From the sequence record MN655998.1: DNA of 64,000 nucleotides; one strand, 5' to 3'. Position 1 is the stretch's first letter. Every line of letters begins with the position of its first letter. The translations under genes were made by a program, and so were the position numbers. Source of the stretch: Escherichia phage E26. Positions 5,029-42,948 of the stretch are shown here, in pieces. The notes under the pieces are model-generated. The model was not told the origin of the DNA and did not search any database. It saw only the letters and a program-made list of their open reading frames with translations.

Positions 5029-5034
5029 ATTATA

Positions 5035-5778
5035 TCATTCTCCGTCAGTTCGTTTCAGGTATTCCAACGCTGCATATAGTCTTTGCGGATCGTCTTTGAA
5101 CATTCCTAATCCGGCGTTACATTTTCCACAAAGAACACCTCTTATCTTACCAGTCTTATGATTATGGTCAAGATGTTTCCACTTTTGGCGTTTTCTCTCG
5201 CCGCATCGTTCATTTATGAATTTTACACCGCATATCTCGCAATTGTCAACTCTGTCTAAAATTTCTAGCGCTTCTCGTTTTGTTATTTTTATACCATCTT
5301 CGGCGTGGTGATATGGTCTATCTAGTTCTCGTTCTCGTTTCTCAAACAATCGACACTCATCAGAACAATACTTTTGAGATGCGTTTATTGCAACAAATGG
5401 TTTACCGCATTTAGCGCATTCTCGTTCAATCTTTATGTTTTGTGTCTGATCCAACGATGCGCAACGAGAACAGCAAAATTTATGATAGCCTCTAGAGTAT
5501 GTATGATAATTTACAGGATTTGGGCATCTTGCACATTTAACTATTCCTGTTATTCCGTGGCGCAATCTATAAACAGCCTCGTTATATGGTTGTTGATTTC
5601 TGAGACCTCCATTACAGAACTTAAACTCATTCCTTATAATCTGAAATTCCGCAGGATACAATTTTTCCATTTCTGGAATTTTATTTTCTTTAAAAAGATT
5701 TGAGTTTAGTCTATTTCCGCTTTTCGCCTCCAGAACATCAACAATAAACTTTTTGATGTTCACTTTTTCTCTCTCCAA
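5035..5778 (-). CDS. HNH (endonuclease VII-type) homing endonuclease-like protein with N-terminal Cys clusters
   Basis: C-terminal HLDHNHKTGKIRGVLCGKCN motif; several CxxC pairs; track start is TTG, true start may be GTG at 5763. Confidence 0.65.
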   Translation of the reverse strand: MEREKVNIKKFIVDVLEAKSGNRLNSNLFKENKIPEMEKLYPAEFQIIRNEFKFCNGGLRNQQPYNEAVYRLRHGITGIVKCARCPNPVNYHTYSRGYHKFCCSRCASLDQTQNIKIERECAKCGKPFVAINASQKYCSDECRLFEKRERELDRPYHHAEDGIKITKREALEILDRVDNCEICGVKFINERCGERKRQKWKHLDHNHKTGKIRGVLCGKCNAGLGMFKDDPQRLYAALEYLKRTDGE

Positions 5779-5870
5779 TACATAACATAACCATAACTTA
5801 CTGCAACCGCCACAAAGACGGCTGCAACAATCATATTAAAAATTGAGTGATTGTCAAGTATATGACTCAT
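5760..5870 (-). CDS. small membrane protein (36 aa, below track cutoff)
   Basis: Hand-translated MSHILDNHSIFNMIVAAVFVAVAVSYGYVMYWREKK; ATGA stop-start overlap with upstream gene. Confidence 0.35.
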   Translation of the reverse strand: MSHILDNHSIFNMIVAAVFVAVAVSYGYVMYWREKK

Positions 5871-6040
5871 GACACGCGCACATTTTTATCATAGTACCCG
5901 CCATTAATCCCGCGCGGGGCAGTCAATCCCTGTTTGCATTCTTTACCACATTCAGGGCATTCTGCCTTTTCACGCTCGGAAATTTTGCGGATTTTCTGAA
6001 ATTGACCGTGTTCTTCACAAGAATAATCGTATAATGGCAT
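5867..6040 (-). CDS. FmdB-like zinc-ribbon protein
   Basis: MPLYDYSCEEHG...CPECGKEC; start at internal Met of track ORF 5867..6121. Confidence 0.5.
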   Translation of the reverse strand: MPLYDYSCEEHGQFQKIRKISEREKAECPECGKECKQGLTAPRGINGGYYDKNVRVS

Positions 6041-6041
6041 A

Positions 6042-6710
6042 TTATCCCCTTTGTTTCTTAACTGAATTTGGATCTGGATTTTCTGGTAGGTCTTCCAGAC
6101 CCATAGCATAACGTTGTGCATAGATTAGCATAAGAATATCGCGAGCGCAATCATGAATTGCATCATGTGCGATAAAACCATCTAGCGTACCCATTGGTAA
6201 CGGACACTCACACATCCCGCGATGCATCAATGTACGCTCAATGGCGGTGCGAACATCTCGGATATTCCAGAATCGCACAGGTTCAAGGCTGAACGTCTCT
6301 CGTGTATTGTGTGCACGGCGGATCATATCAACTAGCAACGGAATATCAAACGCATTACCGCGTGACCACATTACTGATTTAACCGGATCTACTCCTACGG
6401 CTTCACAGAATGCGTTAAAACGAGCTAAACCTTCTTTAGTTGATACTTCCGTACCATTTGTGATTAATTGCTTTCTCATGCCTTCTGAGGCGGTATTCTT
6501 CCACCATTCAACCACACCATGATCAAACACTCTTACACCTTTCTGGGAAGGAATATCAAATTTTACCAGAAAGGAATTGTCAACCAGTTCTTTAAATGTA
6601 GGTGGATTGTGCGGATCTTCTTTAAATCCGATTGCCGCCATATTGATAACCGCCCCATCAGGCGGATAACCTAAACTTTCAAAGTCAATCATTAAATCCA
6701 CTGGAAGCAT
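6042..6710 (-). CDS. dexA: exonuclease A (DEDD 3'-5' exonuclease)
   Basis: DFESLG...H motifs; T4 synteny upstream of topo II; start at MLPVDL internal Met. Confidence 0.8.
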   Translation of the reverse strand: MLPVDLMIDFESLGYPPDGAVINMAAIGFKEDPHNPPTFKELVDNSFLVKFDIPSQKGVRVFDHGVVEWWKNTASEGMRKQLITNGTEVSTKEGLARFNAFCEAVGVDPVKSVMWSRGNAFDIPLLVDMIRRAHNTRETFSLEPVRFWNIRDVRTAIERTLMHRGMCECPLPMGTLDGFIAHDAIHDCARDILMLIYAQRYAMGLEDLPENPDPNSVKKQRG

Positions 6711-6711
6711 T

Positions 6712-6954
6712 TTAAATATCCTCCGCGATATGCCGGAACAACTCCAGATCGTTTTTATCCAGAATGAAACCGCTACAATCAATAATCCCGTTACCGTAAT
6801 TATCGGTTAACAGTCGTTCCGTTGCCATGTATGCGCGTACTTTGTTGTTAAAATTCATTACATGTTGTGCATAGTCACAATGAATCTTTTGACGGTTCCA
6901 CGCGACAATTGATTGTAGATGTATTACATTAGCCATATCATTAATAACAACCAT
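6712..6954 (-). CDS. hypothetical protein
   Basis: ORF tiling; no motif. Confidence 0.45.
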   Translation of the reverse strand: MVVINDMANVIHLQSIVAWNRQKIHCDYAQHVMNFNNKVRAYMATERLLTDNYGNGIIDCSGFILDKNDLELFRHIAEDI

Positions 6955-6955
6955 A

Positions 6956-7123
6956 TCAAAAACCTCTCTTAGTGAAATGCTCGATCATTTTATTGATACA
7001 TGCAGCTTCACTATCGCCGGACACGTTCCAGCCGTATAGACCCCATCTAAAGCACATGGTAACAGTTCCATTGTGACGGCTTACCGTCACATCATTAAAT
7101 TCTGGGATACTTCGCATAATCAT
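6956..7123 (-). CDS. small hypothetical protein (55 aa, below track cutoff)
   Basis: Hand-translated ORF with GAGGAA RBS; fills gap between dda and downstream gene. Confidence 0.35.
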   Translation of the reverse strand: MIMRSIPEFNDVTVSRHNGTVTMCFRWGLYGWNVSGDSEAACINKMIEHFTKRGF

Positions 7124-7133
7124 AATAATTTCC

Positions 7134-8525
7134 TCAAATATAGTCTACTCGATACCTCGCACGGGTAACACCCACATATAATAACTGCATTGCCAATTCA
7201 AAGTCAACATTGTCTGTACACATGCAAGGAGTATACAGGAACACGCGGTCTACGCTGATCCCTTGTGACTTATGAATGGTGCAAGCTGGTAATGCTTTTA
7301 CATTCAAGAACATACGCTTCATCGTCCAGAATGAATCCCAATCTGGTTTAAATTTTGGATTCTCTTTCTTCATTTCGCGATATTGTCCGGCGACCGTATT
7401 CAGATAGATAGAGAAAATGTTCTTCTGACGTTGTTCTGTCAGAATGTTGATTTCTACTAAATCCGGTTTATCTGTAGTGATTCCGACTGCATCTAAACCG
7501 ACTTTCTGATTTAGGATTTCTTTGTCTTCGTCATCATCGACGCTTTCCACTTTCAGAGTATAGCCTAAAACTGGTTGCGGATCTACCCCCGTGCAACGTA
7601 ATGTAAATTCACGCGGTATAACCTCTTTAACCCGGATCATCTCACCATTGTTAAAAATAACATTGGGAATTTTCTTCCCGCGTTCATCTCGCAGATATTC
7701 GATCAACGGTTCCTGAGTAACCAGAATTTCATCTACAATCACTGGTTCATCGGTGTTATAAACGCGCTTGCGCACAATTTCATTGAGTTTTTCGACGCTC
7801 TTGTTAGTGTAAGCCAGAATACGGTTTTCTAGAAGGTCTTCCGGCGTTTTAACGGTTTCGAAATAATGCTTCATAAACTCCGGCAGAGTTGAGCTATGGA
7901 ATACACCCTCGTTACCGCACTGCTTTTCGAATACCCATTTACCGTTACGGACAGCGGTCGCCACATCAATGATCGGTGCATTAGATCGTTTAATTTCTGT
8001 CAACTCCACGTTTTGAAAATTTTCATCCGTGAAGAAAGGAGAAATTGACGTTGCACCGCTCGGATCAACTGGTCGTAACTGGTGCGGATCGCCAACTGCA
8101 ATAACAACAATTCGACCGTTGATACTCTTCATGAGAATATCAAATAGTTTCTTATCGACCATACTCGCTTCATCAACAATGATGATCTGAACATCATCTA
8201 GCTTAGGAGTATCTTTTTGCTCAAATACTTGAGTATCTTCATAGTTGGTCGGGTTTAGTCGCAGTAGTGCATGTAAAGTAAATGCTTGACGACCTACCGC
8301 TTTACTCAAAACTTTTTTAGCCTGGTGGGTAGGCGTTGCCAAAACCACACCAGTTACACCACGGCGGACCATTTCCTGAACAATGAATTTCATCATTGCG
8401 GTTTTACCAGTACCAGCCGCACCCCGGACAGTTGTATGCTTCTTTTGTTCAATGCGTTTCATTAGAACATCAAAAGCATGTTTTTGCCCGTCTGTTAACA
8501 TATCGAAAGTTAATACTCTGCTCAT
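7134..8525 (-). CDS. dda: Dda DNA helicase (SF1)
   Basis: Walker A GAAGTGKT; KRSNAPIIDVATAVRNGKW; LYVGVTRARY C-terminus as in T4 Dda. Confidence 0.9.
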   Translation of the reverse strand: MSRVLTFDMLTDGQKHAFDVLMKRIEQKKHTTVRGAAGTGKTAMMKFIVQEMVRRGVTGVVLATPTHQAKKVLSKAVGRQAFTLHALLRLNPTNYEDTQVFEQKDTPKLDDVQIIIVDEASMVDKKLFDILMKSINGRIVVIAVGDPHQLRPVDPSGATSISPFFTDENFQNVELTEIKRSNAPIIDVATAVRNGKWVFEKQCGNEGVFHSSTLPEFMKHYFETVKTPEDLLENRILAYTNKSVEKLNEIVRKRVYNTDEPVIVDEILVTQEPLIEYLRDERGKKIPNVIFNNGEMIRVKEVIPREFTLRCTGVDPQPVLGYTLKVESVDDDEDKEILNQKVGLDAVGITTDKPDLVEINILTEQRQKNIFSIYLNTVAGQYREMKKENPKFKPDWDSFWTMKRMFLNVKALPACTIHKSQGISVDRVFLYTPCMCTDNVDFELAMQLLYVGVTRARYRVDYI

Positions 8526-11799: not shown

Positions 11800-12003
11800 T
11801 TATAGCTCAAATTTCATGAAAGTTCCTACACTTTCATTTTCATTCTCTCCGTTTTCATCTAAGCCAAATTTGTAGACACTACCATCTGGCGATGTGTAAG
11901 AGAATACACGAAAACGGCCTACCGAATCAAGTTCTGTAAATTCATATTCTTTTCCGGCTTCAAAAAGTGCATATGTGCTTTTAAGACATTTCATCGTAAT
12001 CAT
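11800..12003 (-). CDS. hypothetical protein
   Basis: ORF tiling; start overlaps upstream stop (ATGA). Confidence 0.45.
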   Translation of the reverse strand: MITMKCLKSTYALFEAGKEYEFTELDSVGRFRVFSYTSPDGSVYKFGLDENGENENESVGTFMKFEL

Positions 12004-12714: not shown

Positions 12715-13350
12715 TCAATCGAATGTAGAAAGCAACTGTTTTGTTTCTTTCAGTTGTCGTTCAAGATTTTTGCGTTTCTCTTTAAGTTGCATTTTAGCAT
12801 TATTTCGCTCTCTTGTAACCTCTTTATCAATGCTCTTATTCCAGTTATCAATATCAGAATAAGTTGGCATACCCAATTCTAAACCTAATGCGGTTGGATG
12901 CAGGGTAACAGTCCATAAACCGCTAATCTTCTTAAATAGGTCTGGGTGTAGTGTACTATCTACATCTTCCGGTGTCAACTCTTTTTCTTCTTTCAGTGGT
13001 GGGTTCTCGTCATATGGTTCCAGTGCATTTACTTTAATATCAGATACCTCATCAAAGAATCCGCGTACATCCGCAGGAAATACACAAGCAATTTCCCAAC
13101 CGTGTTCACGCAGAGAAGTAATATTTTTCACTTCCCCACCATGTGCGATAATTGACGTAACATTACCATCAAGATCCACAGAATTTACAAGAAACGGCTT
13201 ATCGTCTGTCAGATCATTATAAAATTGTGCTTCGGCGGTAGTCATCTCCAGAAAAAGGTCACGAATAGGTCGACCATCTGGTGCATTGCCTTCCTTGAGA
13301 GTGTAGATTCGACTTACGATCCATTTTGGCGGTAAAGTATTAGCGATCAT
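12715..13350 (-). CDS. hypothetical protein
   Basis: ORF tiling; AGGAG RBS. Confidence 0.5.
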   Translation of the reverse strand: MIANTLPPKWIVSRIYTLKEGNAPDGRPIRDLFLEMTTAEAQFYNDLTDDKPFLVNSVDLDGNVTSIIAHGGEVKNITSLREHGWEIACVFPADVRGFFDEVSDIKVNALEPYDENPPLKEEKELTPEDVDSTLHPDLFKKISGLWTVTLHPTALGLELGMPTYSDIDNWNKSIDKEVTRERNNAKMQLKEKRKNLERQLKETKQLLSTFD

Positions 13351-13400: not shown

Positions 13401-14813
13401 TTAGAAAGTCATATTATTTGCTAGCTCGTCGAGTTTTTCGCGTTTCTCGGCTTGCTGTGCGCTTTGTGGTTTAACTTGTGCATTCTCCTGATCTGCGATC
13501 TGGTTTGGAACTTCATACCAACGCTGATTTCCTTTTTTCACACCAACGTTAAACCGTGAATAATAGTTCTTATCACCGTAACGAGACTTGATCTGCTTCA
13601 TGAGTTGGACGCCCATTTTAGCCAGGTCTTCGGTTTCGATAACACCCAACATAAAGTCGGCTGTAGCCGGAAGACCTGCTGATTCAGCGGTATCACTCAT
13701 GTTAAGGTCGGAAGCATCCCAACCCGCGCGGGTAGTCTGTGCCGCAGTCCAACCAACAACATCCCACTTAACAAAAAATCCGCGAAGTTCTTCCGCAATC
13801 GCTTTAACGAGAGTGTAGCTATTCTCAGAGTATACACGCAAGCGAGACGATGCGCAAATCCCCAGATAATCAACAATCACAACATCAGGTTTAAACTGTT
13901 TCTTGAGTCGCAATTCATTCATTAACGCCTCAAAGTGATTGGAGTTTGCGCCACCAGTCGGATATTGCTTGATCATCAATTTTCCAACCGGACGATCTCC
14001 GATCTTCTTATTCTTAACACGCTTCATACGTGCGGAATATTCCGCAAAAGAAACATTACCATTATCCAATTCATCTAAGGTAATGTCAAGTAAGTTTGCA
14101 TCAATACGTTTGGCTACGACATGCTCTGCCATCTCCATTGAGATATACAATACATCATAACCACATTCCATATAATCCGCAGCAAGAGAACACAATCCAA
14201 GCGATTTGCCAACGTTTACACCAGCAAGCAACACATTTAGAGTTTTTCTTTCCGCCCCTCCTTTCGTGATTTTATTCAACATAGGCAGTTTAAACGGGAT
14301 CTTATTCGCTTTAGTCTGATATAGCAAGAATCGTTTTTCAAAGTCATTAAACCAGTCATGACCTACATCAGAATCAAACGTAATGGATAGTGCTTCCTGC
14401 ATGATCTCAGGAATAGCTCCCTCACTCGGCAATTTCTTATTCTGTTTCTCTTTTGGTAGTTGTGCGTTCGCCTGAATCTCTAGCGCCCGTGACATTGCAT
14501 TATACATGGCACGGTCACGAATAAATTTTTCGGTTTCCTTCATTAACCAATCAAGGTCTTCCGGTGTATTCTCCAGCGAATCGAGAAGAGTTTTAGCCCC
14601 TTCATATGTTGTCTGATTGCCTCTCTCCTTGTCCAAAGCAATCTGTAATGCAGTTGGCGTAGGAATATTGGAATATTCGTCTACGTGCTTTTTAATCAGC
14701 TTATAAATCAGTTTTTCTTCGTCTTCGGTGAAGTAGTCCGCTTTAAGGTGAGGCCATACATTCGTAAAGAATGCGCCATTGTAAATCAACTGTGAAAAGA
14801 TAGTTTTAATCAT
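13401..14813 (-). CDS. 41: replicative DNA helicase gp41 (DnaB-like)
   Basis: Walker A GVNVGKS; DnaB-family C-terminal domain; 470 aa; synteny 61-41-uvsX. Confidence 0.9.
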   Translation of the reverse strand: MIKTIFSQLIYNGAFFTNVWPHLKADYFTEDEEKLIYKLIKKHVDEYSNIPTPTALQIALDKERGNQTTYEGAKTLLDSLENTPEDLDWLMKETEKFIRDRAMYNAMSRALEIQANAQLPKEKQNKKLPSEGAIPEIMQEALSITFDSDVGHDWFNDFEKRFLLYQTKANKIPFKLPMLNKITKGGAERKTLNVLLAGVNVGKSLGLCSLAADYMECGYDVLYISMEMAEHVVAKRIDANLLDITLDELDNGNVSFAEYSARMKRVKNKKIGDRPVGKLMIKQYPTGGANSNHFEALMNELRLKKQFKPDVVIVDYLGICASSRLRVYSENSYTLVKAIAEELRGFFVKWDVVGWTAAQTTRAGWDASDLNMSDTAESAGLPATADFMLGVIETEDLAKMGVQLMKQIKSRYGDKNYYSRFNVGVKKGNQRWYEVPNQIADQENAQVKPQSAQQAEKREKLDELANNMTF

Positions 14814-30204: not shown

Positions 30205-30463
30205 AAATCGCCCTCAGTTCTTTATAGCCTCCAATGTGCTCGTTGTCAATGAATATCTGGGGGTATACAAACCGGAGGCTCTTTGAGTTTAGCCTCCCCG
30301 CCAGCTCTTCAATCATATCACGGTCGGGAATAATGTCAACCCCGACCTGCTTGAATACTGGTTTAAGTGTATACGGAATACCCAGATCATCCAGTAGCTT
30401 CATTGCACCAATACAACCATAACAATGATAAGCCTCTTTCGGTATACCGTATATCTCGATCAT
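30194..30463 (-). CDS. nrdH: glutaredoxin-like protein (NrdH-like)
   Basis: CYGC active site, 89 aa, glutaredoxin fold pattern; adjacent to nrd genes. Confidence 0.65.
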   Translation of the reverse strand: MIEIYGIPKEAYHCYGCIGAMKLLDDLGIPYTLKPVFKQVGVDIIPDRDMIEELAGRLNSKSLRFVYPQIFIDNEHIGGYKELRAIYDY

Positions 30464-30966
30464 TTCTCAGCCTTTAATCTTTCTAGTTCTTCTTCCAGTT
30501 CCTTAATGCGCTTCTCGCGTTCAATATCACGTTGGATCTTAGTGGCGAATACTCGTTTAAACTGATTATAGTCATCAATTTTAAATACTTCCTCTTCACC
30601 ATATCGACGTACAGAAACTTCGTAGTTGTTGAAAAATTGTTCCAACATTGCATCAGTGGTCAGTTCTGCCGATACCACTTTAAAATGACGTTCTTCTGAT
30701 TGCAAAAACCAGTTGTGCGCGTATTCCCGTACATCATCAACATTGCGGCAGGTGTATACCGTGCCATCAATTTCAATCACAGAAACATAATTCACATCCG
30801 ATGCATGGTGATCAAATGCGATAACTTTAAATGGACGGTCGCCTATAAACTCTGCTATTGCATCATTTGCAACGCTAAAGTTTGCAAAATCTTCTCTCGT
30901 TTTCTTATCTTTCCACTGATAGGTCACGCCAGCAACAAACATATTACCATCCTCGCTCTTTACCAA
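30460..30966 (-). CDS. paralog family A member 1
   Basis: GVTYQWKDKKTREDF N-motif, C-terminal coiled coil; similar to neighbours. Confidence 0.55.
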   Translation of the reverse strand: MVKSEDGNMFVAGVTYQWKDKKTREDFANFSVANDAIAEFIGDRPFKVIAFDHHASDVNYVSVIEIDGTVYTCRNVDDVREYAHNWFLQSEERHFKVVSAELTTDAMLEQFFNNYEVSVRRYGEEEVFKIDDYNQFKRVFATKIQRDIEREKRIKELEEELERLKAEK

Positions 30967-31480
30967 TCAAAAATTCAACTTCACGACGTTTAATGTCTTC
31001 TTGAAGGTCTTTAATCTTCTGTCGATCTTGCATGATTTCGTCCATCTTGTCAAGTGCTGTAATGAAGTCATCGAAACGTTCAAAGGTTTTACCTTCATTT
31101 GCTTCGCCAAATTTAACCATTGTCAGGCCGTAACGACTACTAAACAGACGTTTCAACTGTCCAACGATTTTAGAATCAGTGGTTATAACTTCCAATTCTT
31201 CTACTTCACGAAAGAATTTTCTATCGAATGGACTAAAGAAATATGTTGACGTCCAAATGTCTTTTCCTGTAGCAGTTTTCGTCGTATGCTCGACCCCATC
31301 GAGTTCTATTACATTAATCCAACCATTATCATCGATCTCGATGATGGTAAATGGCTTGTCACCAATAGCTGCACTAATATCGCTGTTAAGTGGAGAAAGA
31401 ACACCTTCTCCGTTAGTAATAAACTCAGTTTTAGCGTTTTCGTCTTTCCAGGTGTAAGTTTTACCAATTTCCCATTTCAT
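30944..31480 (-). CDS. paralog family A member 2
   Basis: GKTYTWKDENAKTEF; C-terminal FITALDKM + coiled coil. Confidence 0.55.
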   Translation of the reverse strand: MKWEIGKTYTWKDENAKTEFITNGEGVLSPLNSDISAAIGDKPFTIIEIDDNGWINVIELDGVEHTTKTATGKDIWTSTYFFSPFDRKFFREVEELEVITTDSKIVGQLKRLFSSRYGLTMVKFGEANEGKTFERFDDFITALDKMDEIMQDRQKIKDLQEDIKRREVEFLIGKERGW

Positions 31481-31492
31481 AATATAGTCCCC

Positions 31493-31993
31493 TTAACCGA
31501 TTTTATCAAGTTCGTTTAATGCTTTCTCTGCTTCCTGTATAGCTTGCACCCTTTCCGGCATTTTGTCAAGAAAATCTTTCAACTCTTCAAAACTGGAGAT
31601 ATGACGCAAGGCGTTAGCACCGATAGCCGCATGTGATTTGCATTCAAAGCGGATTTTATAATTATCCATCGCCAATTTGAGAAGGTCTATTAGATCATAT
31701 TCATGACCAGGCAATAAAACTTCTTTGAAGCACGCTCGGTCGCCATCGGAAAACCATATATTATCACCAACATCGATAGAACTAATATAATCCCCTTCGT
31801 GATTATAGATTGAACGTACATTACCCCAACGGTCTACCGTAGCGACAGTAAATGGTTTATCTAGATATGTAAACACACCATCAATATTAGGTTTTTGTTC
31901 GTAACGCCAACCATCACGCAAAATACGCTTTTCGTCCTCACCAACCAACTTATATGTCTTCCCTTCTTCCCATTTCATAATATCATCTCTCAT
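31493..31993 (-). CDS. paralog family A member 3
   Basis: GKTYKLVGEDEK; C-terminal LKDFLDKMP + coiled coil. Confidence 0.55.
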   Translation of the reverse strand: MRDDIMKWEEGKTYKLVGEDEKRILRDGWRYEQKPNIDGVFTYLDKPFTVATVDRWGNVRSIYNHEGDYISSIDVGDNIWFSDGDRACFKEVLLPGHEYDLIDLLKLAMDNYKIRFECKSHAAIGANALRHISSFEELKDFLDKMPERVQAIQEAEKALNELDKIG

Positions 31994-32519
31994 TTTTGAT
32001 ACGTGATTCTAATTGGATCATACGGTCGCGCGTTTGCTTATATTCGCGGATAGCACCGATTCGGCTAGGCATACCATCCAGTACGCTCTTAATACCTTCT
32101 AGGGTAGTGATTTTAGCAATGCTATTATGCAATCCTGTCTTATCGATCAACTGAATGTCGTAGGCTTCCATAAGCAGACCCAGACGTTCTAAAGTTAGGT
32201 CTTCTTCTTTTTCTTCCGATTCTGGAATCTTAGGTTCAATAGTAACTTCGGTAAAGAAACGACGCTCAGCAGCCCAAAACCACACACCGGAACAGCCAAT
32301 AGGGGATTCTTTTAACGTCATAGAGTCGAAATCACTACCAATAATAGTAATTTCTCTAACATCACCATCATCGTCAATGTCTTCTACCATAAACGGGCGA
32401 CCAGCCAACAAGTCCACAATACATCTGTTAATAGACGACGAAAATTTAGTCAGTTCGGCTTTCGACGCTTCGCATTCAATCTTGTAAGTTTTACCAACTT
32501 CCCATTCCATAATAATCAC
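31983..32519 (-). CDS. paralog family A member 4
   Basis: GKTYKIECEASKAEL; C-terminal IKSVLDGMP + coiled coil. Confidence 0.55.
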   Translation of the reverse strand: MIIMEWEVGKTYKIECEASKAELTKFSSSINRCIVDLLAGRPFMVEDIDDDGDVREITIIGSDFDSMTLKESPIGCSGVWFWAAERRFFTEVTIEPKIPESEEKEEDLTLERLGLLMEAYDIQLIDKTGLHNSIAKITTLEGIKSVLDGMPSRIGAIREYKQTRDRMIQLESRIKNER

Positions 32520-32520
32520 C

Positions 32521-33030
32521 TCAAATAATTTTCACTGGAATACTATTAACAATCTTGTATTGTACTTGATTGTCAGACCCCCGCCACGGCTTCTTCGTTG
32601 GCATATCTTTAATATAACGACCATCTATGAACATGTCAACTGATTCTACAATTTTTCTTTGCTCATCATTCAATTGGTCAAGGGTATAACCGGACCATAG
32701 CCAAATATCTTTATTTGGCATCCATGATTTTACTTCATCGATGATCCGCTGTACACCCTTTAAATTGCGTTTATACAGCGGATCACCACCTAAGAATGTT
32801 AACCCCTGAATAAAATCAGGTCTAAGCAGATCCAGAATCAATCCCATTGTATCATCGGTGAATGGTTCCCCGTTCTTAGGATTGAGTAGGCTAGCATTAA
32901 AGCAACCATCACATGCGTGTGAACATCCGGTAACGTAAAGGGAGACTCTCACTCCCTCACCGTTAACCATATCACAATCTTTAATATCGGCATAGCGTAG
33001 TTTGCCGTATGTATCAGAACTCATATTCAA
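32521..33030 (-). CDS. nrdG: anaerobic ribonucleotide reductase activating protein (radical SAM)
   Basis: CxxxCxxC cluster CSHACDGC; 169 aa; adjacent to nrdD. Confidence 0.85.
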   Translation of the reverse strand: MNMSSDTYGKLRYADIKDCDMVNGEGVRVSLYVTGCSHACDGCFNASLLNPKNGEPFTDDTMGLILDLLRPDFIQGLTFLGGDPLYKRNLKGVQRIIDEVKSWMPNKDIWLWSGYTLDQLNDEQRKIVESVDMFIDGRYIKDMPTKKPWRGSDNQVQYKIVNSIPVKII

Positions 33031-33166
33031 TTACCCCGAACTCGTTTACAATCTGCGCTTTATAGTAACCACCGCGAGATGCTAATAGATAAGCTGGGCT
33101 TAGGTATTCGTATTCACGGATTTCTACTTGTGCGTTTTCAGTTTCCCAAATCAGTAAAGTCCACAT
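33014..33166 (-). CDS. small hypothetical protein (start after promoter cassette)
   Basis: Track ORF 33014..33241 includes promoter; ATG at 33166 follows AGGAGAATCAAAT. Confidence 0.4.
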   Translation of the reverse strand: MWTLLIWETENAQVEIREYEYLSPAYLLASRGGYYKAQIVNEFGVIEYEF

Positions 33167-33208
33167 ATTTGATTCTCCTGTAAAGTTGTATCTCGTCTTG
33201 ATGAATAT

Positions 33209-33237
33209 AGTATAGGGGATCGCGAGATCCCCGTCAA
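33209..33237 (-). promoter_or_regulatory. early promoter cassette (TTGACG-N17-TATACT)
   Basis: Palindrome GGGGATCGCGAGATCCCC in spacer. Confidence 0.45.
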
Positions 33238-33241
33238 GCAT

Positions 33242-33775
33242 TTATTTTAAATTTTTTCGAATGTATTCAGACCATTCCTTCCCTGTCAGTTCGGTCCCAT
33301 TCTGGAAACTGAAATATTCATACGGCATCGAGTCAAGATAAAACAGGATCATACATCGCGCCATATAATACCAATCACGATTAAAGTAAACTACGTTATC
33401 TCCAGTACCATCAGCACCTTTATCATAACCATCGCGGGTACGGGCGACCCATTGAATGGTATCATTTTTCTCACGGATAGTAACAGGTTCCCAATATCCA
33501 GCACACCCAGCATGACCACACGAACAAGTAAGGAAATATTGACCTTTTGCTTTGTTGTCATCCCATTCACGATGGATTGGTTTGATCTCGTGAAACAGTG
33601 CCAAACAATCATGATTATGCAACACTGGCTTACCATCAATCAATGCATGGAATGTATACAAACGACCCGTAGACAAATAGCTATCCTCACGCTCAACCAG
33701 TTCAATAGCAATCTTTTTAGCTCGTTCTTTGTGTCGTTGTGCTTTACGTTTACGGTTTAATGATTTCATAGTCAC
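33242..33775 (-). CDS. hypothetical protein with Cys/His cluster
   Basis: CSCGHAGCAGYWE; no family recognised. Confidence 0.45.
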   Translation of the reverse strand: MTMKSLNRKRKAQRHKERAKKIAIELVEREDSYLSTGRLYTFHALIDGKPVLHNHDCLALFHEIKPIHREWDDNKAKGQYFLTCSCGHAGCAGYWEPVTIREKNDTIQWVARTRDGYDKGADGTGDNVVYFNRDWYYMARCMILFYLDSMPYEYFSFQNGTELTGKEWSEYIRKNLK

Positions 33776-33786
33776 CTCACATTATT

Positions 33787-34326
33787 TCAAAGATCGCGAT
33801 ATTGTACATTATGAAAATGAGAACTTGCATTACCAATATTGTAGATAACAAATTCTTCATCCGGCGCTTGCGCTACAAATTGAGTATGAGCAACCGCCAC
33901 AACCTTAAAAATACGATCCGTGATCTTGTGTTTAATTTCTGCCCCTACTTCCATAGGAACATATTCATTTGTTTCTGTTTCAGTCGCAAAACAGCCATCT
34001 TCTTCATAAGCACGAACAAATCGGTCGCAATCAGTACGCTTAACAAATTCAAGAGTATATAATTCTCGTGAATTGTCGGTATAGACCAATACAGAATTAT
34101 TATGATAGCGAATCACATACAGGTTATTATCATCGTCAATTACACAAAAGCTACGGATTCCTTCGCCTTGACTCCAGCAGACATTAACCACCGTTCCTCT
34201 AATAAAAAAACTTTCCTTTAAATTAAAACTAGTCAATGTGCTAGCGTGCATTTTAACAACAACACCATCGCCAATTTCCAGTTTACGAAGTTTAACTTCT
34301 TTGCTCAGTACACAAAACATCATCAT
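33787..34326 (-). CDS. hypothetical protein
   Basis: ORF tiling; preceded by promoter cassette. Confidence 0.45.
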   Translation of the reverse strand: MMMFCVLSKEVKLRKLEIGDGVVVKMHASTLTSFNLKESFFIRGTVVNVCWSQGEGIRSFCVIDDDNNLYVIRYHNNSVLVYTDNSRELYTLEFVKRTDCDRFVRAYEEDGCFATETETNEYVPMEVGAEIKHKITDRIFKVVAVAHTQFVAQAPDEEFVIYNIGNASSHFHNVQYRDL

Positions 34327-34355: not shown

Positions 34356-34383
34356 ATTATACATTAGCTAATCAGGTTGTCAA
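34356..34383 (-). promoter_or_regulatory. early promoter cassette (TTGACA-N16-TATAAT)
   Basis: Immediately downstream of nrdD terminator. Confidence 0.5.
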
Positions 34384-34395
34384 CACCCAAAAACG

Positions 34396-34420
34396 AAAAA
34401 GCCGACCCTTTCGGATCGGC
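34396..34420 (-). terminator. rho-independent terminator after nrdD
   Basis: GCCGATCCGAAAGGGTCGGC + UUUUU. Confidence 0.55.
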
Positions 34421-34426
34421 TGAAAA

Positions 34427-36289
34427 TTACATGTGCTTAACGCGGTTTACCATCTCGGAGTGTTTCCCGTGGTTGAATGGACGCAGATCAACAGATCCAA
34501 GATATCCACTAACGCGACGGATAACATTCATCTTTTCCAGATTGTCGTTGCCGCAATCAGGACAAACAAAACCAGACTCGGTCGCTCTCATTTCCTTATT
34601 AGATCCGCATACATGACATACATCAGAAGGAGTATTAACACCGAAGTAGTGCAATTTATCCATTGCATAGTCTACTACAGTTTCAAGACCTTTCAGGTTG
34701 TTTTTCATGTCTGGGAACTCAACATAAGAGATCATGCCACCGGACGCCAGCCAGTGATAATCTTTCTCAAAGTCGATTTTCTCAAATGGTGTGACTTTCC
34801 GGTCTACGTCAAGGTGGAATGAGTTGGTGTACCAGTCTTTATCGGTAGCACCCTTAACAATACCAAATTGCTCTCGATCCAGTCGATTAAATCGATAGCA
34901 AAGGCTCTCGGCTGGCGTACCGTAAAGACTAAACCCAAGTCCGGTTTCATCCTTCCATTTTTCAGTATAATGACGCAAGATCTTAAGAATATGTTTACCG
35001 TATCGCTGCGCATCTTCCGAATCAAACGGATGAACACCAAACAGGACGCTCAATACCTCATGTAAACCAATATATCCAAGAGAGATACTAGCGCGACCAT
35101 CTTTCAACACTTCCAAAATTTCATCGTTTTGATGAATACGGAAAAATGCACCTTCTGTATACAGCACCGGAGCAACATTGGCTTTAGCGCCTTTTAAAGC
35201 GTCTACGCGACTCATGAGCGCATCAAAGCAAATAGGCATACGATTGGCTAGCTCTTGTTCGAATAGCTCAATTCTGCGCATTACAGACGCTTTACCAGCA
35301 CGAAGCGCGGCAATAAGGGCAATACGCGGAAGATTCAGAGTCACAACACCTAAGTTATTACGTCCGTCTAATACTTCTTCGCCTTTCTCATTATGCCACA
35401 CACCCAGGAAGCTACGACAACCCATCGGGCTAACCGGAACACTAGATCCAGTGATGCTACGGTTATTCTTCGCAGAGATATAATCAGGGTAAAGACGCTT
35501 ACTAGAACATTCCAATGCAAGTTGCTTAATGTCGTAGTTCGGATCTTCCGGTTTAAGGTTTAATCCTTCTTCTAAGAACATCACCAGCTTAGGAAACACC
35601 GGAGTTATACCATCTTTACCTAAACCTTTAGTTCGAACTTTCAGGATCGCTTTCTGAATCAGTTTTTCTTCCCAGCTAGTACCCATACCAAAGGTTAAAG
35701 TCACAAAAGGCGTTTGACCGTTGGTGGAGAACAAAGTGTTGATTTCATATTCCAACGCTTGATACCCGTCTAAAGTTTCTTTTTCTGTCTTCTCTTGTGC
35801 ATAGAGAGTATCAGCTTTGATTCCGTAGGTTTCGGCATCAGCAAGGTGTTTATGATATGTTTTCTCAACGTATGGCGCTAAAACCTGATCGATGTTTGCA
35901 ATTGTGGTCCCGCCATATTGATGACTTGCCACCTGTGCGATAATTTGAGCGGTTACAGCACAAGCAACGCCGATTGATTTCGGACTTTCGATTTGTGCGC
36001 TACCCAATTTAAAACCATTCTCTAACATGTCTTTGAGATTAACAAGACAGCAGTTAGTAAACGGCATAGCGGGTGCATAATCCATATCATGATAATGAAT
36101 ATCACCGTCTACATGCGCTTTATAGATGTGCTCAGGTAACACGGTTTTAGCAATCTGTTTAGACACAGCACCAGCAATCAGATCTCGACGTGTCGGGAAT
36201 GTTCGCGCGTCTTTGTTCGCGTTCTCTTTGCTTACTTCGTTTTCTTTACCCGTTGCGATCTCTGTAATGTCTTTGATTAGTTTTTCCAT
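34427..36289 (-). CDS. nrdD: anaerobic ribonucleoside-triphosphate reductase (glycyl radical enzyme)
   Basis: 620 aa; C-terminal glycyl radical motif RVSGYLG and zinc ribbon CHVCGS...CPDCG. Confidence 0.95.
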   Translation of the reverse strand: MEKLIKDITEIATGKENEVSKENANKDARTFPTRRDLIAGAVSKQIAKTVLPEHIYKAHVDGDIHYHDMDYAPAMPFTNCCLVNLKDMLENGFKLGSAQIESPKSIGVACAVTAQIIAQVASHQYGGTTIANIDQVLAPYVEKTYHKHLADAETYGIKADTLYAQEKTEKETLDGYQALEYEINTLFSTNGQTPFVTLTFGMGTSWEEKLIQKAILKVRTKGLGKDGITPVFPKLVMFLEEGLNLKPEDPNYDIKQLALECSSKRLYPDYISAKNNRSITGSSVPVSPMGCRSFLGVWHNEKGEEVLDGRNNLGVVTLNLPRIALIAALRAGKASVMRRIELFEQELANRMPICFDALMSRVDALKGAKANVAPVLYTEGAFFRIHQNDEILEVLKDGRASISLGYIGLHEVLSVLFGVHPFDSEDAQRYGKHILKILRHYTEKWKDETGLGFSLYGTPAESLCYRFNRLDREQFGIVKGATDKDWYTNSFHLDVDRKVTPFEKIDFEKDYHWLASGGMISYVEFPDMKNNLKGLETVVDYAMDKLHYFGVNTPSDVCHVCGSNKEMRATESGFVCPDCGNDNLEKMNVIRRVSGYLGSVDLRPFNHGKHSEMVNRVKHM

Positions 36290-36333
36290 TGTATCACCTA
36301 TGAAAAAGCGGGATTTCTCCCGCTCGTTGATAG

Positions 36334-36828
36334 TTATTTTACCAGTTCTGCTAATTCTTTTTCCGCCGCTTCCAGTTCAGCTTTAAGCTGTTTAATCTCT
36401 TGTCGCTTCTTATTAGCGGCTTCCTGCTTACTATTTCGGATAACCTGATCTAGATACAACTCCCAATCCTGAATATTTTTGATAATGTAGCCGTCAACAT
36501 TAATTGGTCGTAGATTCAGTACAGCTTCCAGTTTAGTCGCAAAAACTTTAATTGCTGGTGTGAAGTATTCATATTCGTTATCTTCAAACCAATAACCTAG
36601 ACTTGCATTATCAATACGAAGACGAAGTTCAAGATCAAGGTCTTTATCTTCGGTGTAAAGATCTTTCACCTGACCCAGCGAACTAACAACAACTTTAAAA
36701 CGAATTTTATCTACACCACCAAACACATCAGTAAGTATACCAGCAATTGAGCTATTAGCGCAAGATTGGTCGCTGAATGCGTCAAGGTTTTCTTTAGTTA
36801 CAGTATACCAAACATCTTGTACCCACAT
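36334..36828 (-). CDS. paralog family A member 5
   Basis: C-terminal coiled coil KQLKAELEAAEKELAELVK; family-like N-domain. Confidence 0.5.
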   Translation of the reverse strand: MWVQDVWYTVTKENLDAFSDQSCANSSIAGILTDVFGGVDKIRFKVVVSSLGQVKDLYTEDKDLDLELRLRIDNASLGYWFEDNEYEYFTPAIKVFATKLEAVLNLRPINVDGYIIKNIQDWELYLDQVIRNSKQEAANKKRQEIKQLKAELEAAEKELAELVK

Positions 36829-36858
36829 AATATAATCCTCTCGTTGTTAAGTGGGAGT

Positions 36859-36886
36859 ATTATAGCATACTCCCTTCGCATGTCAA
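36859..36886 (-). promoter_or_regulatory. early promoter cassette (TTGACA-N16-TATAAT)
   Basis: Stem GGGAGTAT/ATACTCCC spans -10. Confidence 0.5.
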
Positions 36887-38061
36887 GCACTAACTTTTTT
36901 CTTTACTGCTTTCACCTTCTGGCGAATTGCTCGAATCTCTTCGATCTCTTTTTCAGTATCTTTAACAATTTCTTTGCGATTCTGAATATCTTTATCGAGA
37001 TTATCATCAAGTTTAGGCAGCATGTCAATCAAGAACTTTTTAAGGTCTTTCAGGTTGCGAATAACAGTACCTTCACCCATTACCGCCACACCTACACCGT
37101 CCGGCAGATCACCAAACAGTTTAACCAGTTCAGACAGATGATCATGATCTTCTAGTGCTTCTTCCGGTTCAGATGGCAGTTCAACAAAGTTATAACGTTC
37201 ATCATTGCTGATCAAGTGATACCAGCAAAGCCCGAAAGATTTCGGTGTATATTCTACACCATCAATTTCAACCGCGTCAACACTTCCATAATCATCTACT
37301 TTAGTTACCTTAAATCCTTGTCCCAGCTTTTGAACAATTTCAACAACATGACTTGATACAGTTTCAGCGGTAAACCAATATGGCAAATTATGCTGATTTG
37401 GCTTGTAGCGTTCACCTACTTTAAATCTCTGACCATCCGCTTGCATAGAATGAAATTGTTGTTTCGTGATTTCCGCGAAGTATTCAAATTCGCTACCGTC
37501 AAACAAGCAATTCCATTGATCACAAAAACGATCCGCCTTAACAGTTTCACCTTTCGCGGTGATCATGGTAGCTGATCCGTGCAATTCTTCTTCAACTAAA
37601 AAGCCATATTCGACAAAATCAACAAGTTTCATAGCTTCTTTGTGATCTGGATCATGCTCTCCCCAGAATCGCTTAAATTCTTGCAAACCTTCTGGTGTAA
37701 ACGAATAACATTTACCTTTTTCAAAGTAAGTCGGCATTGCATCCTCTTTCTTGTTCATCGCTTCGTATGCCTCTTTTGAGATGCGTTTAAAGTATTTACG
37801 CTCATCGTGCATAATCATAGTAGCCCAATAATAAACGATATCCTCAGCGGAATAAACTACATCTCCAGCTTCAATAGTAATAACATGACCGTTGTCATCT
37901 TTTTCTAATACTTTAAAGCCCTTTTCGACGATTTCAGCAACCCGAATATGACCACGGCGCGAAGCATCGGTCAGAATAATTGAATAGCGAGAAAAGTCTA
38001 GAAACTCATCTTTACCACCTTCACGGAATGCATAGTAATGACCTTCAAAGAATTTAGCCAT
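36883..38061 (-). CDS. paralog family A member 6 (three tandem family domains in one protein)
   Basis: Repeats GHYYAFREGGKDEF / GKCYSFTPEGLQEF / GERYKPNQ; ERKYFKRISK; C-terminal LKKFLIDMLP + coiled coil. Confidence 0.55.
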   Translation of the reverse strand: MAKFFEGHYYAFREGGKDEFLDFSRYSIILTDASRRGHIRVAEIVEKGFKVLEKDDNGHVITIEAGDVVYSAEDIVYYWATMIMHDERKYFKRISKEAYEAMNKKEDAMPTYFEKGKCYSFTPEGLQEFKRFWGEHDPDHKEAMKLVDFVEYGFLVEEELHGSATMITAKGETVKADRFCDQWNCLFDGSEFEYFAEITKQQFHSMQADGQRFKVGERYKPNQHNLPYWFTAETVSSHVVEIVQKLGQGFKVTKVDDYGSVDAVEIDGVEYTPKSFGLCWYHLISNDERYNFVELPSEPEEALEDHDHLSELVKLFGDLPDGVGVAVMGEGTVIRNLKDLKKFLIDMLPKLDDNLDKDIQNRKEIVKDTEKEIEEIRAIRQKVKAVKKKVSA

Positions 38062-38092
38062 AATATAATCCTCTAGTTGTTTAAATGGGAGT

Positions 38093-38121
38093 ATCTTACT
38101 ACTCCCGTTTCATCATGTCAA
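38093..38121 (-). promoter_or_regulatory. early promoter cassette (TTGACA-N17-TAAGAT)
   Basis: Stem GGGAGTA/TACTCCC. Confidence 0.45.
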
Positions 38122-38124
38122 GTG

Positions 38125-38703
38125 TTAAAGTGACTTTTGGATCTCTTTCAGTTCAGCTACTTTATCGGCGCTGAATTTAGCGTAGGTATCATGTCGAATA
38201 ATTTCACTTTCAAGAAAGGTTTCCAGCCGAGATCTATTTTCAATAAGGAACTCTTTCAGGTCTTCCGCGTTCTTGATAAAGATTTTATTGTCAGTAATGT
38301 CATCTTCAATCGCAAAGGAGATAGAGCGAACTTTACCAAACAAGTTAATCAGATCTTCCAGAGATTCTTCTTTCTTAACTGGTTTCATTTCTTCAAACTG
38401 CTTTTTAGTGATGCGTTTAAAGTATTTGCGCTCGCTTGCATCAATCATGATTGACGCACCCTCATAATCATGAGTTTCTACCAAATACACTTTACCCATA
38501 ACATTAACCGTAAGAACTTTAAAGCCCCTGTGAAGCACACCATACAGGAACTTGTTATGTTGTGGATAGCGTTTAACAAATTCCTCTGCGGACTCAGCAT
38601 TACGGAAAGTGTAATAACGACCTCGTTCAAAAACAGCATCATTTGAAGACTTAGCTGGATACAATTTATACGTTTTCTGTACCATAATACAATCCTCTAT
38701 CAT
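38125..38703 (-). CDS. paralog family A member 7
   Basis: GRYYTFRNAESAEEF; ERKYFKRITK; C-terminal LKEFLIENR + coiled coil. Confidence 0.55.
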   Translation of the reverse strand: MIEDCIMVQKTYKLYPAKSSNDAVFERGRYYTFRNAESAEEFVKRYPQHNKFLYGVLHRGFKVLTVNVMGKVYLVETHDYEGASIMIDASERKYFKRITKKQFEEMKPVKKEESLEDLINLFGKVRSISFAIEDDITDNKIFIKNAEDLKEFLIENRSRLETFLESEIIRHDTYAKFSADKVAELKEIQKSL

Positions 38704-38972
38704 TTCACTAATTGAACAGCACGAAACAGAATGCGGTCACACGGAAGAAGCATAAATTCCCAACGCGGATCAAAGTCTTTAGCGGTATATGTTTTCCCAT
38801 CAACCGAGATTTCACTTACATAACCAATAGGTGACACTTTAAGAACAGTAAATCCATTCTTGATGACTTCGTAGGTATCTTTCAAACCTTCGTAGTCATC
38901 CTCTAAGAAGTCTTTACGTGCTTGCTCAGATTTAAAAACATAGGCAACACCGGATTTAAACATCTTACGCAT
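38700..38972 (-). CDS. paralog family A member 8 (single domain)
   Basis: GVAYVFKSEQARKDF...DGKTYTAKDF. Confidence 0.5.
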   Translation of the reverse strand: MRKMFKSGVAYVFKSEQARKDFLEDDYEGLKDTYEVIKNGFTVLKVSPIGYVSEISVDGKTYTAKDFDPRWEFMLLPCDRILFRAVQLVK

Positions 38973-39003
38973 TGTTGATTCTCCTTCTTGATTAGATGGG
39001 AGT

Positions 39004-39032
39004 ATTTTACTACTCCCATTTCATGCTGTCAA
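39004..39032 (-). promoter_or_regulatory. early promoter cassette (TTGACA-N17-TAAAAT)
   Basis: Stem GGGAGTA/TACTCCC. Confidence 0.45.
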
Positions 39033-42263: not shown

Positions 42264-42638
42264 TTAAAAATCTTCTTCCGGTTTATATCGACCGTCGTCT
42301 TCTTGTTTTGGGCTGAATCCGGTATGTTTGCGCGGCTTCGCTTCCGGTTTACCCGCAATCATCAAACCAAAACATTTCAGCCCCTTATAACACATAACAA
42401 TATAAACTACTGTCCACGTTATAGGCCAGATGATTGCGGCAATACAAAATGCTCCTGTATCGACCTCTTTCGTGTCCTTATCGAATCTGGCATACAAGCA
42501 GAATATAAGATACGAGATCATTGCACCCGTAGGCCAGATATAAAGCACATTAACAATATCTTGTGTTGTCACATTGTCCTCCTTACATGTCTTGCAGTGC
42601 GTAGAAGCATTTTTCTTCATAGTCATAGAAAATGTCAA
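42264..42638 (-). CDS. hypothetical membrane protein
   Basis: Two hydrophobic segments. Confidence 0.4.
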   Translation of the reverse strand: MTFSMTMKKNASTHCKTCKEDNVTTQDIVNVLYIWPTGAMISYLIFCLYARFDKDTKEVDTGAFCIAAIIWPITWTVVYIVMCYKGLKCFGLMIAGKPEAKPRKHTGFSPKQEDDGRYKPEEDF

Positions 42639-42861
42639 AGTATGCTTTTTCTACATACTCGCCATTGATCCAAGCGGCAGTAACAATCAGGGTAGTCCAG
42701 TTAGATCCGCTCTCAACGGTAAAGGTTTTAATACCCAGCTTCACAGCAAGGTCACGCGCAAACTGGTCGCAACCACGGCAGGAAGTGATATTGGAAGTTT
42801 TGATTTTGATGCCACCGCGAGTTTTAGAAATTTCTACTTTAGCGAAAGACAGGTTGCTCAT
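42583..42861 (-). CDS. hypothetical protein (start after promoter cassette)
   Basis: ATG at 42861 follows AGGAGAATCAAA leader. Confidence 0.45.
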   Translation of the reverse strand: MSNLSFAKVEISKTRGGIKIKTSNITSCRGCDQFARDLAVKLGIKTFTVESGSNWTTLIVTAAWINGEYVEKAYFDIFYDYEEKCFYALQDM

Positions 42862-42904
42862 TTTGATTCTCCTTAAGAAAAGTGTGTTTCGTTTTGATGT
42901 GTGT

Positions 42905-42933
42905 AGTATAGGGGATACGCGATCCCCTGTCAA
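42905..42933 (-). promoter_or_regulatory. early promoter cassette (TTGACA-N17-TATACT)
   Basis: Palindrome GGGGATACGCGATCCCC in spacer; leader GTTTCGTTTTGA. Confidence 0.5.
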
Positions 42934-42948
42934 CAACTTTTTATGATT

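Follow-up and report, generated by a model that had tools for sequence, protein, structure and literature searches.

The 64,000-nucleotide stretch of Escherichia phage E26 analysed here (MN655998.1; the window) belongs to a Krischvirus (RB49-like, Straboviridae) genome, in which two arrays of paralogous genes on the minus strand, block 1 at 30460–32519 and block 2 at 36334–38972, lie on both sides of the anaerobic ribonucleotide reductase genes nrdG to nrdD. We propose that the two blocks are a Krischvirus-specific expansion of the T4-like GoF/Frd.2/MotB.1 protein family, and we put the probability of this explanation as a whole, including its functional part, at about 0.6. Taken by themselves, family membership and the evolutionary account are very likely correct, and the specific functional reading, in which the proteins would bind mRNA-turnover components or other host proteins, is tentative.

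Homology within and between the two blocks

We excised ten domains of about 95 amino acids (aa), of which block 1 supplied four and block 2 six, and used them to build hidden Markov models (HMMs); E-values of the local searches refer to small databases of 636–1016 translated open reading frame (ORF) sequences. An HMM made from block 1 only matched the block 2 proteins at E-values of 1e-13 to 9e-5 and the reverse search also worked, confirming 36334–38972 as a second array of this family, as an earlier reading of the window from its sequence only (the sequence-only reading) had claimed. With leave-one-out HMMs from which the whole 392-aa protein of block 2 had been omitted, its repeats 1, 2 and 3 were recovered at 4e-11, 0.014 and 4e-7, and in the same kind of test the proteins of the genes beginning at 38125 and 38700 reached 2.5e-11 and 3e-14. 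Repeat 2 matched a broad family profile, which includes that domain, at 6.5e-15. The protein of 36334–36828 is the weakest member, with 0.014 in the window-only test and 1e-8 against a broader profile that lacked the protein itself and its two closest relatives. The repeats thus align with one another and with the 30460–32519 proteins at statistical significance, even though pairwise identity between paralogous domains is low (20–38%). All-against-all BLASTP aligned the 38125 protein with three segments of the 392-aa protein, residues 2–124, 113–207 and 246–383, the last of which pairs with residues 57–192 of the 38125 protein.

The connection to T4 emerged from the same models. The window-only domain HMM matched T4 GoF at 1.8e-10, Frd.2 at 2.5e-4 and MotB.1, marginally, at 0.019; after database representatives had been added, the broader profile matched the three at 1.7e-18, 2.1e-12 and 4.6e-7. 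PHROG families 5347, 622, 3710 and 5804 link both blocks to each other and to three families named "goF" (8944, 13003 and 2980), and the positions shared with the T4 family in the alignment are F/W-x-x-G-x-x-Y, PF-x-V, G-x-V and E-x-x-F-F-x-E-V. Against 1.84 billion representatives, the window-only ten-domain profile matched 73 clusters (50% identity) at E ≤ 1e-3, including a T4-GoF-like protein. Most of these are single-domain proteins of 120–190 aa, about ten have two domains, and two have three: the orthologue of the 392-aa protein, plus an unrelated one of 354 aa. Six long proteins (P0074, P0082, P0087, P0092, P0096 and P0097; 800–1600 aa) each matched the profile 3–10 times via short stretches, in its central V-x-V-D-x-x-G-x-V-x-x-I-x-V-D-G part, and were excluded as spurious after inspection of two of them; these two, P0074 and P0096, are highly repetitive, and all six are probably compositional or beta-hairpin repeat matches and not homologues.

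Other searches returned little beyond the genus. Three word-indexed homologue searches recovered almost exclusively Krischvirus proteins, the third, with a 75-sequence family alignment, giving just 24. The family proteins had no significant match among Pfam (searched with ten proteins of the window, including eight from the family), NCBIfam or PADLOC models, the family profile matched no PDB sequence, and Rfam gave nothing meaningful. Weak Pfam matches to RecT (0.0012) and to the KIB1-4 beta-propeller (0.0013) fell below threshold and were disregarded.

Architecture of the family members

Block 2 lies between gene 49 (endonuclease VII) and nrdD, and block 1 between nrdG and nrdH. Positions 36300–39000 share 96–98% identity with RB49, JSE, PHB13, kaaroe and 50-odd other Krischvirus genomes, and RB49p057–p060 are the RB49 counterparts of the four block 2 ORFs, all of which are present on the minus strand where the sequence-only reading had placed them.

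The largest of them, at 36883–38061, encodes the 392-aa RB49p058 orthologue (phrog_8944, 7e-214) with three tandem family domains followed by a C-terminal domain and a helix. The three internal repeats that had been named for it (GHYYAFREGGKDEF, GKCYSFTPEGLQEF and GERYKPNQ) were all found, and the HMMs recovered the three domains. Among paralogous domains of other proteins, domain 1 (residues 1–106; 37744–38061) is nearest to the barrel of the 38125 protein (35% identity) and domain 3 (residues 209–306; 37144–37437) to the 38700 protein (36%); domain 2 (residues 109–206; 37444–37737) is the most divergent of the three. The C-terminal region (36883–37143) runs from LSELVKLFG through LKDLKKFLIDMLP into a long lysine/glutamate-rich helix, which a low-confidence AlphaFold2 model of this protein places at residues 337–391. 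The LKKFLIDMLP stretch reported there is indeed present, and the C-terminal regions of this protein and its paralogues are colinear and weakly conserved; how far they are homologous is taken up below.

Upstream, the gene at 38125–38685 encodes the 186-aa RB49p059 orthologue, with a predicted N-terminal SH3-like barrel, a linker, a small C-terminal domain and a long helix, and with matches to phrog_8944 (1e-101) and phrog_13003 (9e-7). RefSeq names both RB49p058 and RB49p059 "goF mRNA metabolism modulator", and the submitters' name for p058 is "frd.2". The start of this gene is most likely at 38685 (MVQKT...) and not at the in-frame upstream ATG at 38703, because the initiation region AGAGGATT-N-TATTATG is that of the neighbouring genes and because relatives are annotated with this start; AGAGGATTGTATTATG at 38685 matches the initiation regions of both the 36883 and the 36334 gene. 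Next to it, 38700–38972 encodes the 90-aa RB49p060 orthologue, which has one N-terminal family domain without the C-terminal domain (phrog_16115, 5347 and 622).

The fourth block 2 gene, at 36334–36828, encodes the 164-aa RB49p057 orthologue, the most divergent member, with an N-terminal domain and a coiled-coil-like C-terminus; it matches phrog_15067 and, at 2e-4, phrog_3710, a family common to this protein and four clear family members. Of the family motifs that the sequence-only reading had assigned to three of the four ORFs, GRYYTFRNAESAEEF and ERKYFKRITK occur in 38125–38703 and GVAYVFKSEQARKDF in 38700–38972, and 36334–36828 holds just a degenerate version (DVWYTVTKENLDAF).

Block 1 consists of four single-domain paralogues at 31983–32519, 31493–31993, 30944–31480 and 30460–30966, separated by gaps of no more than 12 nt, with the first gene directly after nrdG; their proteins match phrog_5347 at 1e-54 to 3e-65. 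The two blocks therefore hold ten domain copies (four plus six) and not the eleven or more that had been counted. An eleventh copy in the window lies outside both blocks, at 12715–13350 on the minus strand, directly downstream of the gene 41 helicase (13401–14813). This 211-aa protein matched the family at 1.3e-7 with the window-only domain HMM, at 2.2e-8 with the broad profile and at 1.7e-8 in a further test. Its gene adjoins gene 41, whose mRNA is the subject of the family's sole known phenotype, that of T4 GoF(D25Y), and a 211-aa ECD7 protein named "Dc2" in the BFVD database is possibly its orthologue. The family profile also matched parts of two further minus-strand ORFs, 42586–42948 and 11800–12003, at marginal E-values of 0.018 and 0.17 (database of 1016 sequences); they could be very divergent or truncated family members, or the similarity could be due to chance.

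Predicted fold

For the 38125 protein, an AlphaFold2 model computed from 57 aligned sequences, paralogues together with orthologues of these, reached a predicted local distance difference test score (pLDDT) of 76 overall and of 86–96 at residues 21–110, numbered along the 192-aa ORF from 38703. It shows a barrel of five strands (residues 30–33, 61–66, 72–76, 83–87 and 95–98) with two helices (36–57) between strands 1 and 2, then a low-confidence linker (111–145) and helices at 146–191. By homology with this model, the same barrel is probable for the remaining members, among them the 392-aa protein with its three repeats. Conserved barrel positions are mainly aromatic, hydrophobic or glycine, and the other positions vary between paralogues.

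Foldseek found no significant match to this model in the PDB. The sub-threshold list holds mostly ribosomal proteins, plus the SH3-like barrels of the Spt5 KOW domain, the Mib repeat, the KIN SH3-like tandem and the MntR C-terminal domain. The closest solved structure is FeoA, at 13% identity and in a different context, and the likeness to the FeoA/DtxR-C-terminal SH3-like superfamily (CATH 2.30.30.90) is one of fold only: unlike FeoA, the Krischvirus barrels have no match to the Pfam FeoA family (PF04023) and lack metal-binding histidines. Among the viral models of BFVD, there were 50 matches at E ≤ 1e-3, including GoF of phage VR7 (1.5e-5), and all the named ones except phAPEC8 come from T4-like phages of many hosts. 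The model therefore supports the SH3-like barrel fold class and the family, and does not support a specific relationship to Sm/Hfq proteins.

Kim et al. (2025) defined GoF, together with Frd.2 and MotB.1, as proteins with an N-terminal five-strand "LSm-like" barrel, nearest to FeoA-type SH3 domains, a linker and a variable C-terminal domain (PMC12152347). The Krischvirus proteins share with these T4 proteins an acidic character, in most members, the homologous N-terminal barrel of about 90 aa, the same nearest fold and the same layout of linker and variable C-terminal domain, and the T4 genes are early, as the early-type promoters in the Krischvirus sequence suggest for their counterparts. The differences lie in number and format. 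T4 has three dispersed single-domain genes, whereas Krischvirus has at least nine genes with 11–12 domains, and two arrays account for eight of these genes; one of its proteins has three barrels and another, in most relatives, two; and the Krischvirus C-termini are extended by a helix of 35–45 residues that is absent from the T4 proteins. RB49-like phages, paralogue arrays and tandem-domain forms are not mentioned by Kim et al. (PMC12152347).

Domain duplication, allele exchange and selection

By tblastn, the full-length 392-aa fusion was located in 58 of 58 Krischvirus records, at about 90–99% protein identity, and in none outside the genus, and the exhaustive search of 1.84 billion representatives returned it as a single cluster. 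A "two-piece" tblastn match in FL04 was rejected as a variant architecture, being merely a neighbouring paralogue joined to the orthologue. Since the repeats are only 26–38% identical to one another, the triplication must be old. Two-domain relatives with GoF-type C-termini also occur in other lineages, and phrog_13003 ("goF") is itself a profile of 239 positions; tandem duplication of the barrel therefore recurs in the family.

Domain number is still changing in block 1. The orthologue of 30944–31480 in five compared phages (RB49, Phi1, JSE, Whisky and FL37) is a 274-aa two-domain protein, from which the gene in the window differs by an exact in-frame deletion of one domain (96 aa) with both of its ends within the DRKFFREVEE repeat. 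The two-domain allele is found in 56 of the 58 records, and a query spanning the deletion junction was contiguous in just ELT4 (OM803178.1) among the listed records. Domain number thus changes by unequal recombination between repeats, and most relatives (56/58) have eleven copies within the blocks because this orthologue has two domains there.

In the comparison of the window with the orthologues of the same five phages, nrdD, nrdG, nrdH, gene 49 and nrdC are 97–99% identical, with ratios of nonsynonymous to synonymous substitution rates (dN/dS) of 0.02–0.08. The family genes have dN/dS of 0.12–0.40, 3–8 times more relaxed than these five genes, and are under purifying selection with no gene-wide positive selection. 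Within otherwise 97–99% identical genomes they occur as divergent alleles of 75–88% nucleotide identity with raised dS: 30460 at 75–77% in four phages, 36334 at 78% in Whisky, and 38125 at 87–88% in Whisky and Phi1; in 31493, the N-terminal half is replaced in the divergent allele. The family members are thus selected coding genes that exchange alleles. The "active diversification" inferred by the sequence-only reading holds for the domain loss at 30944–31480 and for the occurrence of divergent alleles; the triple fusion, one of its grounds, is ancient and fixed, and the genes are under purifying selection.

Promoter and terminator signals

Three minus-strand cassettes resembling the PeSL elements of RB49 and phi1 precede the block 2 genes. 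Cassette 1 (38998–39032; TTGACA, 17 nt, TAAAAT) stands before the 38700 and 38125 genes and has a GGGAGTA/TACTCCC hairpin (-13.8 kcal/mol, z -3.4) whose loop contains the -10 element; cassette 2 (38087–38121; TTGACA, 17 nt, TAAGAT) precedes the 392-aa gene and cassette 3 (36853–36886; perfect TTGACA, 16 nt, TG-TATAAT, a 12/12 match) the 36334 gene, and in both a hairpin again covers the -10 element. The three match the sigma-70 consensus at 10–12 of 12 positions, with hairpins of -11.9 to -14.7 kcal/mol (z -2.6 to -3.4). Promoter and stem occur jointly three times in the 64-kb window, each time in block 2, against 0.00 expected. The cassettes are homologous over about 75 nt, reaching the start codon, with the Shine-Dalgarno sequence conserved; as the GGGAGTA/TACTCCC stem occurs nowhere else in the window, this suggests that they were copied along with the genes.

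With a sigma-70 consensus, an overlapping stem-loop, a Shine-Dalgarno sequence and a start codon, in intergenic positions before ORFans, the cassettes have all the parts by which PeSLs are defined. They differ in nothing essential from those of RB49 and phi1 and represent a subclass with the stem over the -10 element (PMC2839356, PMC4122927). Experiments have established PeSLs of these two phages as strong early promoters and terminators that mediate modular shuffling; nrdD is named among the PeSL-associated genes, and its surroundings are a known plastic, PeSL-rich site (PMC2839356).

The sequence-only reading had identified neither the cassettes as PeSLs nor the family as GoF/Frd.2/MotB.1, and each block had been thought to possess its own promoter cassette. 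Block 2 has three; block 1 begins immediately after nrdG, and no cassette lies between its own genes. Going upstream from block 1, the first cassette is a terminator hairpin with a perfect sigma-70 promoter just after nrdD (34356–34421, minus strand), which is also the nearest one for 33787, 33242, 33014 and nrdG. Within the 3' end of nrdG, some 90 nt before block 1 begins, the minus-strand stretch 32611–32639 matches the sigma-70 consensus at 11 of 12 positions (TTGACA, 17 nt, TATATT) and is a possible internal promoter for that block. At the other end of nrdD, a terminator-like minus-strand hairpin at 36303–36325 (GAGCGGGA-GAAA-TCCCGCTT followed by TTT; -17 kcal/mol, z -4.6) separates the 36334 gene from the nrdD start codon, which lies about 14 nt further on with no consensus promoter in between. 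Expression of nrdD would therefore have to depend on read-through or on a non-sigma-70 promoter, a class that was not searched for.

Possible functions and alternative explanations

GoF has been a puzzle since the 1970s: goF mutants rescue T4 on rho mutant hosts. The D25Y variant stabilises gene 41 mRNA post-transcriptionally, giving a longer half-life that does not depend on Hfq; both GoF and MotB.1 run as dimers (PMC12152347). By analogy, we suggest the following scheme for the Krischvirus proteins. To judge from the promoters, the genes would be transcribed directly after infection by the host sigma-70 RNA polymerase. Each protein would combine a SH3-like five-strand barrel of about 95 aa, carrying the two-helix insert between strands 1 and 2, with a poorly conserved linker and a small C-terminal module that leads into a long helix; this helix might mediate self-association, as the dimers of the T4 proteins hint. 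The barrels might be binding modules in which conserved residues form the structural scaffold and variable positions set the target, and tandem or oligomeric barrels might add avidity. By analogy with GoF(D25Y), the targets would most likely be components of mRNA turnover or termination, either RNA itself or, more plausibly for the acidic domains, RNA-handling host proteins. Because most barrels are acidic, RNA-handling or other host proteins seem likelier partners for most members than direct RNA. In that case GoF(D25Y) would be exceptional, as a gain-of-function form, which Kim et al. suggest too (PMC12152347).

Several observations weigh against this scheme. Wild-type GoF and MotB.1 had little effect in an RNA reporter assay; GoF and MotB.1, like Frd.2, are dispensable, with no wild-type function shown; and GoF pull-downs recovered GoF alone (PMC12152347). 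In our own data, nine of the ten block barrels are acidic or neutral, seven of them with a net charge of -7 to -10; the sole basic one is that of the 38125 protein (net +5, pI 9.45). The ten window proteins scanned had no Pfam LSM/Hfq match at E ≤ 1 and there was no significant structural match to these folds. For the 392-aa protein an AlphaFold2 prediction with eight close orthologues was unusable (pLDDT 40), leaving its three barrels to sequence homology, and the C-terminal domains are not significantly homologous on their own (leave-one-out HMM E-values of 0.005 to more than 1). Early timing and oligomerisation are steps that we infer.

If the proteins were instead true LSm/Hfq-like RNA chaperones, their barrels would form rings, with the 392-aa protein as a three-barrel pseudo-ring dimerised to six, and would bind phage or host RNA directly. 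Like Hfq and Sm proteins they have a small barrel of five antiparallel strands, seen in the model of the basic 38125 protein, and the "LSm-like fold" label and the mRNA stabilisation by GoF(D25Y) (PMC12152347) suggest a link to RNA stability; three fused barrels and a dimerising helix would moreover add up to six, the stoichiometry of Hfq. Yet most barrels are strongly acidic, their helices lie between strands 1 and 2 and not N-terminally as in Sm proteins, AlphaFold3 gave no confident multimers or hexamers for the T4 proteins, and wild-type GoF affects RNA little (PMC12152347), which makes such chaperones improbable. Host proteins are also the targets in an explanation without a specific RNA link, according to which the arrays are a repertoire of decoys or inhibitors for host takeover or anti-defence, with paralogue number and allele swapping as signs of an arms race. 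The position of these early genes of non-essential type in hyperplastic regions, preceded by PeSL cassettes, would suit it, as would an acidic SH3-like scaffold with mainly hydrophobic or glycine conserved positions and a variable remainder, the divergent alleles with raised dS in near-identical genomes, a dN/dS 3–8 times that of the flanking genes, and the protein-protein contacts made by the SH3-like domains of FeoA and the DtxR C-terminus (PMC12152347). No known defence or anti-defence model was matched in PADLOC, however, dN/dS stays below 1 wherever tested, the GoF pull-down contained no host partner (PMC12152347), and the only phenotype known for the family concerns the level of an mRNA; on balance we consider this explanation unlikely.

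The remaining two alternatives carry far less weight. That the proteins are accessory factors, regulators or assembly proteins of the flanked anaerobic ribonucleotide reductase NrdD/NrdG might be read from their position on either side of nrdG to nrdD, which is conserved in the Krischvirus records examined gene by gene. In T4, however, gene 49 abuts nrdD, just the small gene 55.8 stands between nrdH and nrdG, and none of the ORFs at 38–60 kb, including nrdC.1–nrdC.11, matches the family profile, so the comparison with the T4 nrdC.x region that the sequence-only reading had recommended yields no family member. The site next to the anaerobic reductase is thus a Krischvirus insertion site and not a functional linkage. 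Block 2 has its own promoters and a terminator-like hairpin between itself and nrdD, another family member adjoins gene 41, and the nrdD surroundings are plastic in any case (PMC2839356); we rejected the link to the reductase on T4 synteny and the intervening terminator, and it is very improbable. Functionless decay of duplicates, or chance resemblance of motifs, could account for the low pairwise identity and the lack of curated family matches, but this explanation is effectively refuted, and its probability negligible, given the cross-block and leave-one-out HMM significance and the 73 database clusters, intact ORFs in 58 of 58 genomes with dN/dS of 0.12–0.40, a confidently predicted fold, and conserved Shine-Dalgarno sequences and promoter cassettes.

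An extension of the GoF-family explanation, speculative and in our opinion unlikely in this specific form, is that the arrays constitute a modular repertoire in which each barrel would have a different target and would be reshuffled into one-, two- and three-barrel proteins by unequal crossing-over and PeSL-mediated cassette exchange, yielding multivalent early effectors on host mRNA decay, termination or defence factors. If true, it would reveal the wild-type role of the GoF family. The GoF family, the PeSL cassettes and the goF label of two of the genes are already known from the literature and databases. The literature searched appears not to describe the size of the expansion (at least nine genes and 11–12 barrels versus three in T4), the proteins with tandem barrels, the additional helix at the C-terminus or the domain-number polymorphism. 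Otherwise this is the expected kind of phage accessory-gene family. RB49-like phages have roughly three times the family members of T4, with one, two or three barrels per protein, both basic and acidic barrels and a natural polymorphism in domain number, and thus offer a comparative set in which the binding partner of the barrel and the importance of multivalency could be addressed. They also give a clean example of how hyperplastic regions grow in T4-like genomes, by duplication of genes and of domains within genes together with copied PeSLs, followed by unequal crossing-over and allele exchange.

Neighbouring genes

Between nrdG and nrdD lie ORFs that do not belong to the family. Two of them on the minus strand, 33242–33775 and 33787–34326 (phrog_8242 and phrog_14838), are without functional annotation and occur as divergent alleles in JSE (4104–5201 in the JSE piece; 74–77% nucleotide identity, against 96–99% in other phages). 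The neighbouring minus-strand ORF at 33014–33241 is a mechanical ORF of 75 aa with an uncertain true start; relatives annotate just a 153-nt gene (RB49p053) that overlaps the start of nrdG. In JSE, nrdD (5304–7926 in the JSE piece) is broken into two ORFs by a homing-endonuclease gene, and nrdD of the window (34427–36289) is intact.

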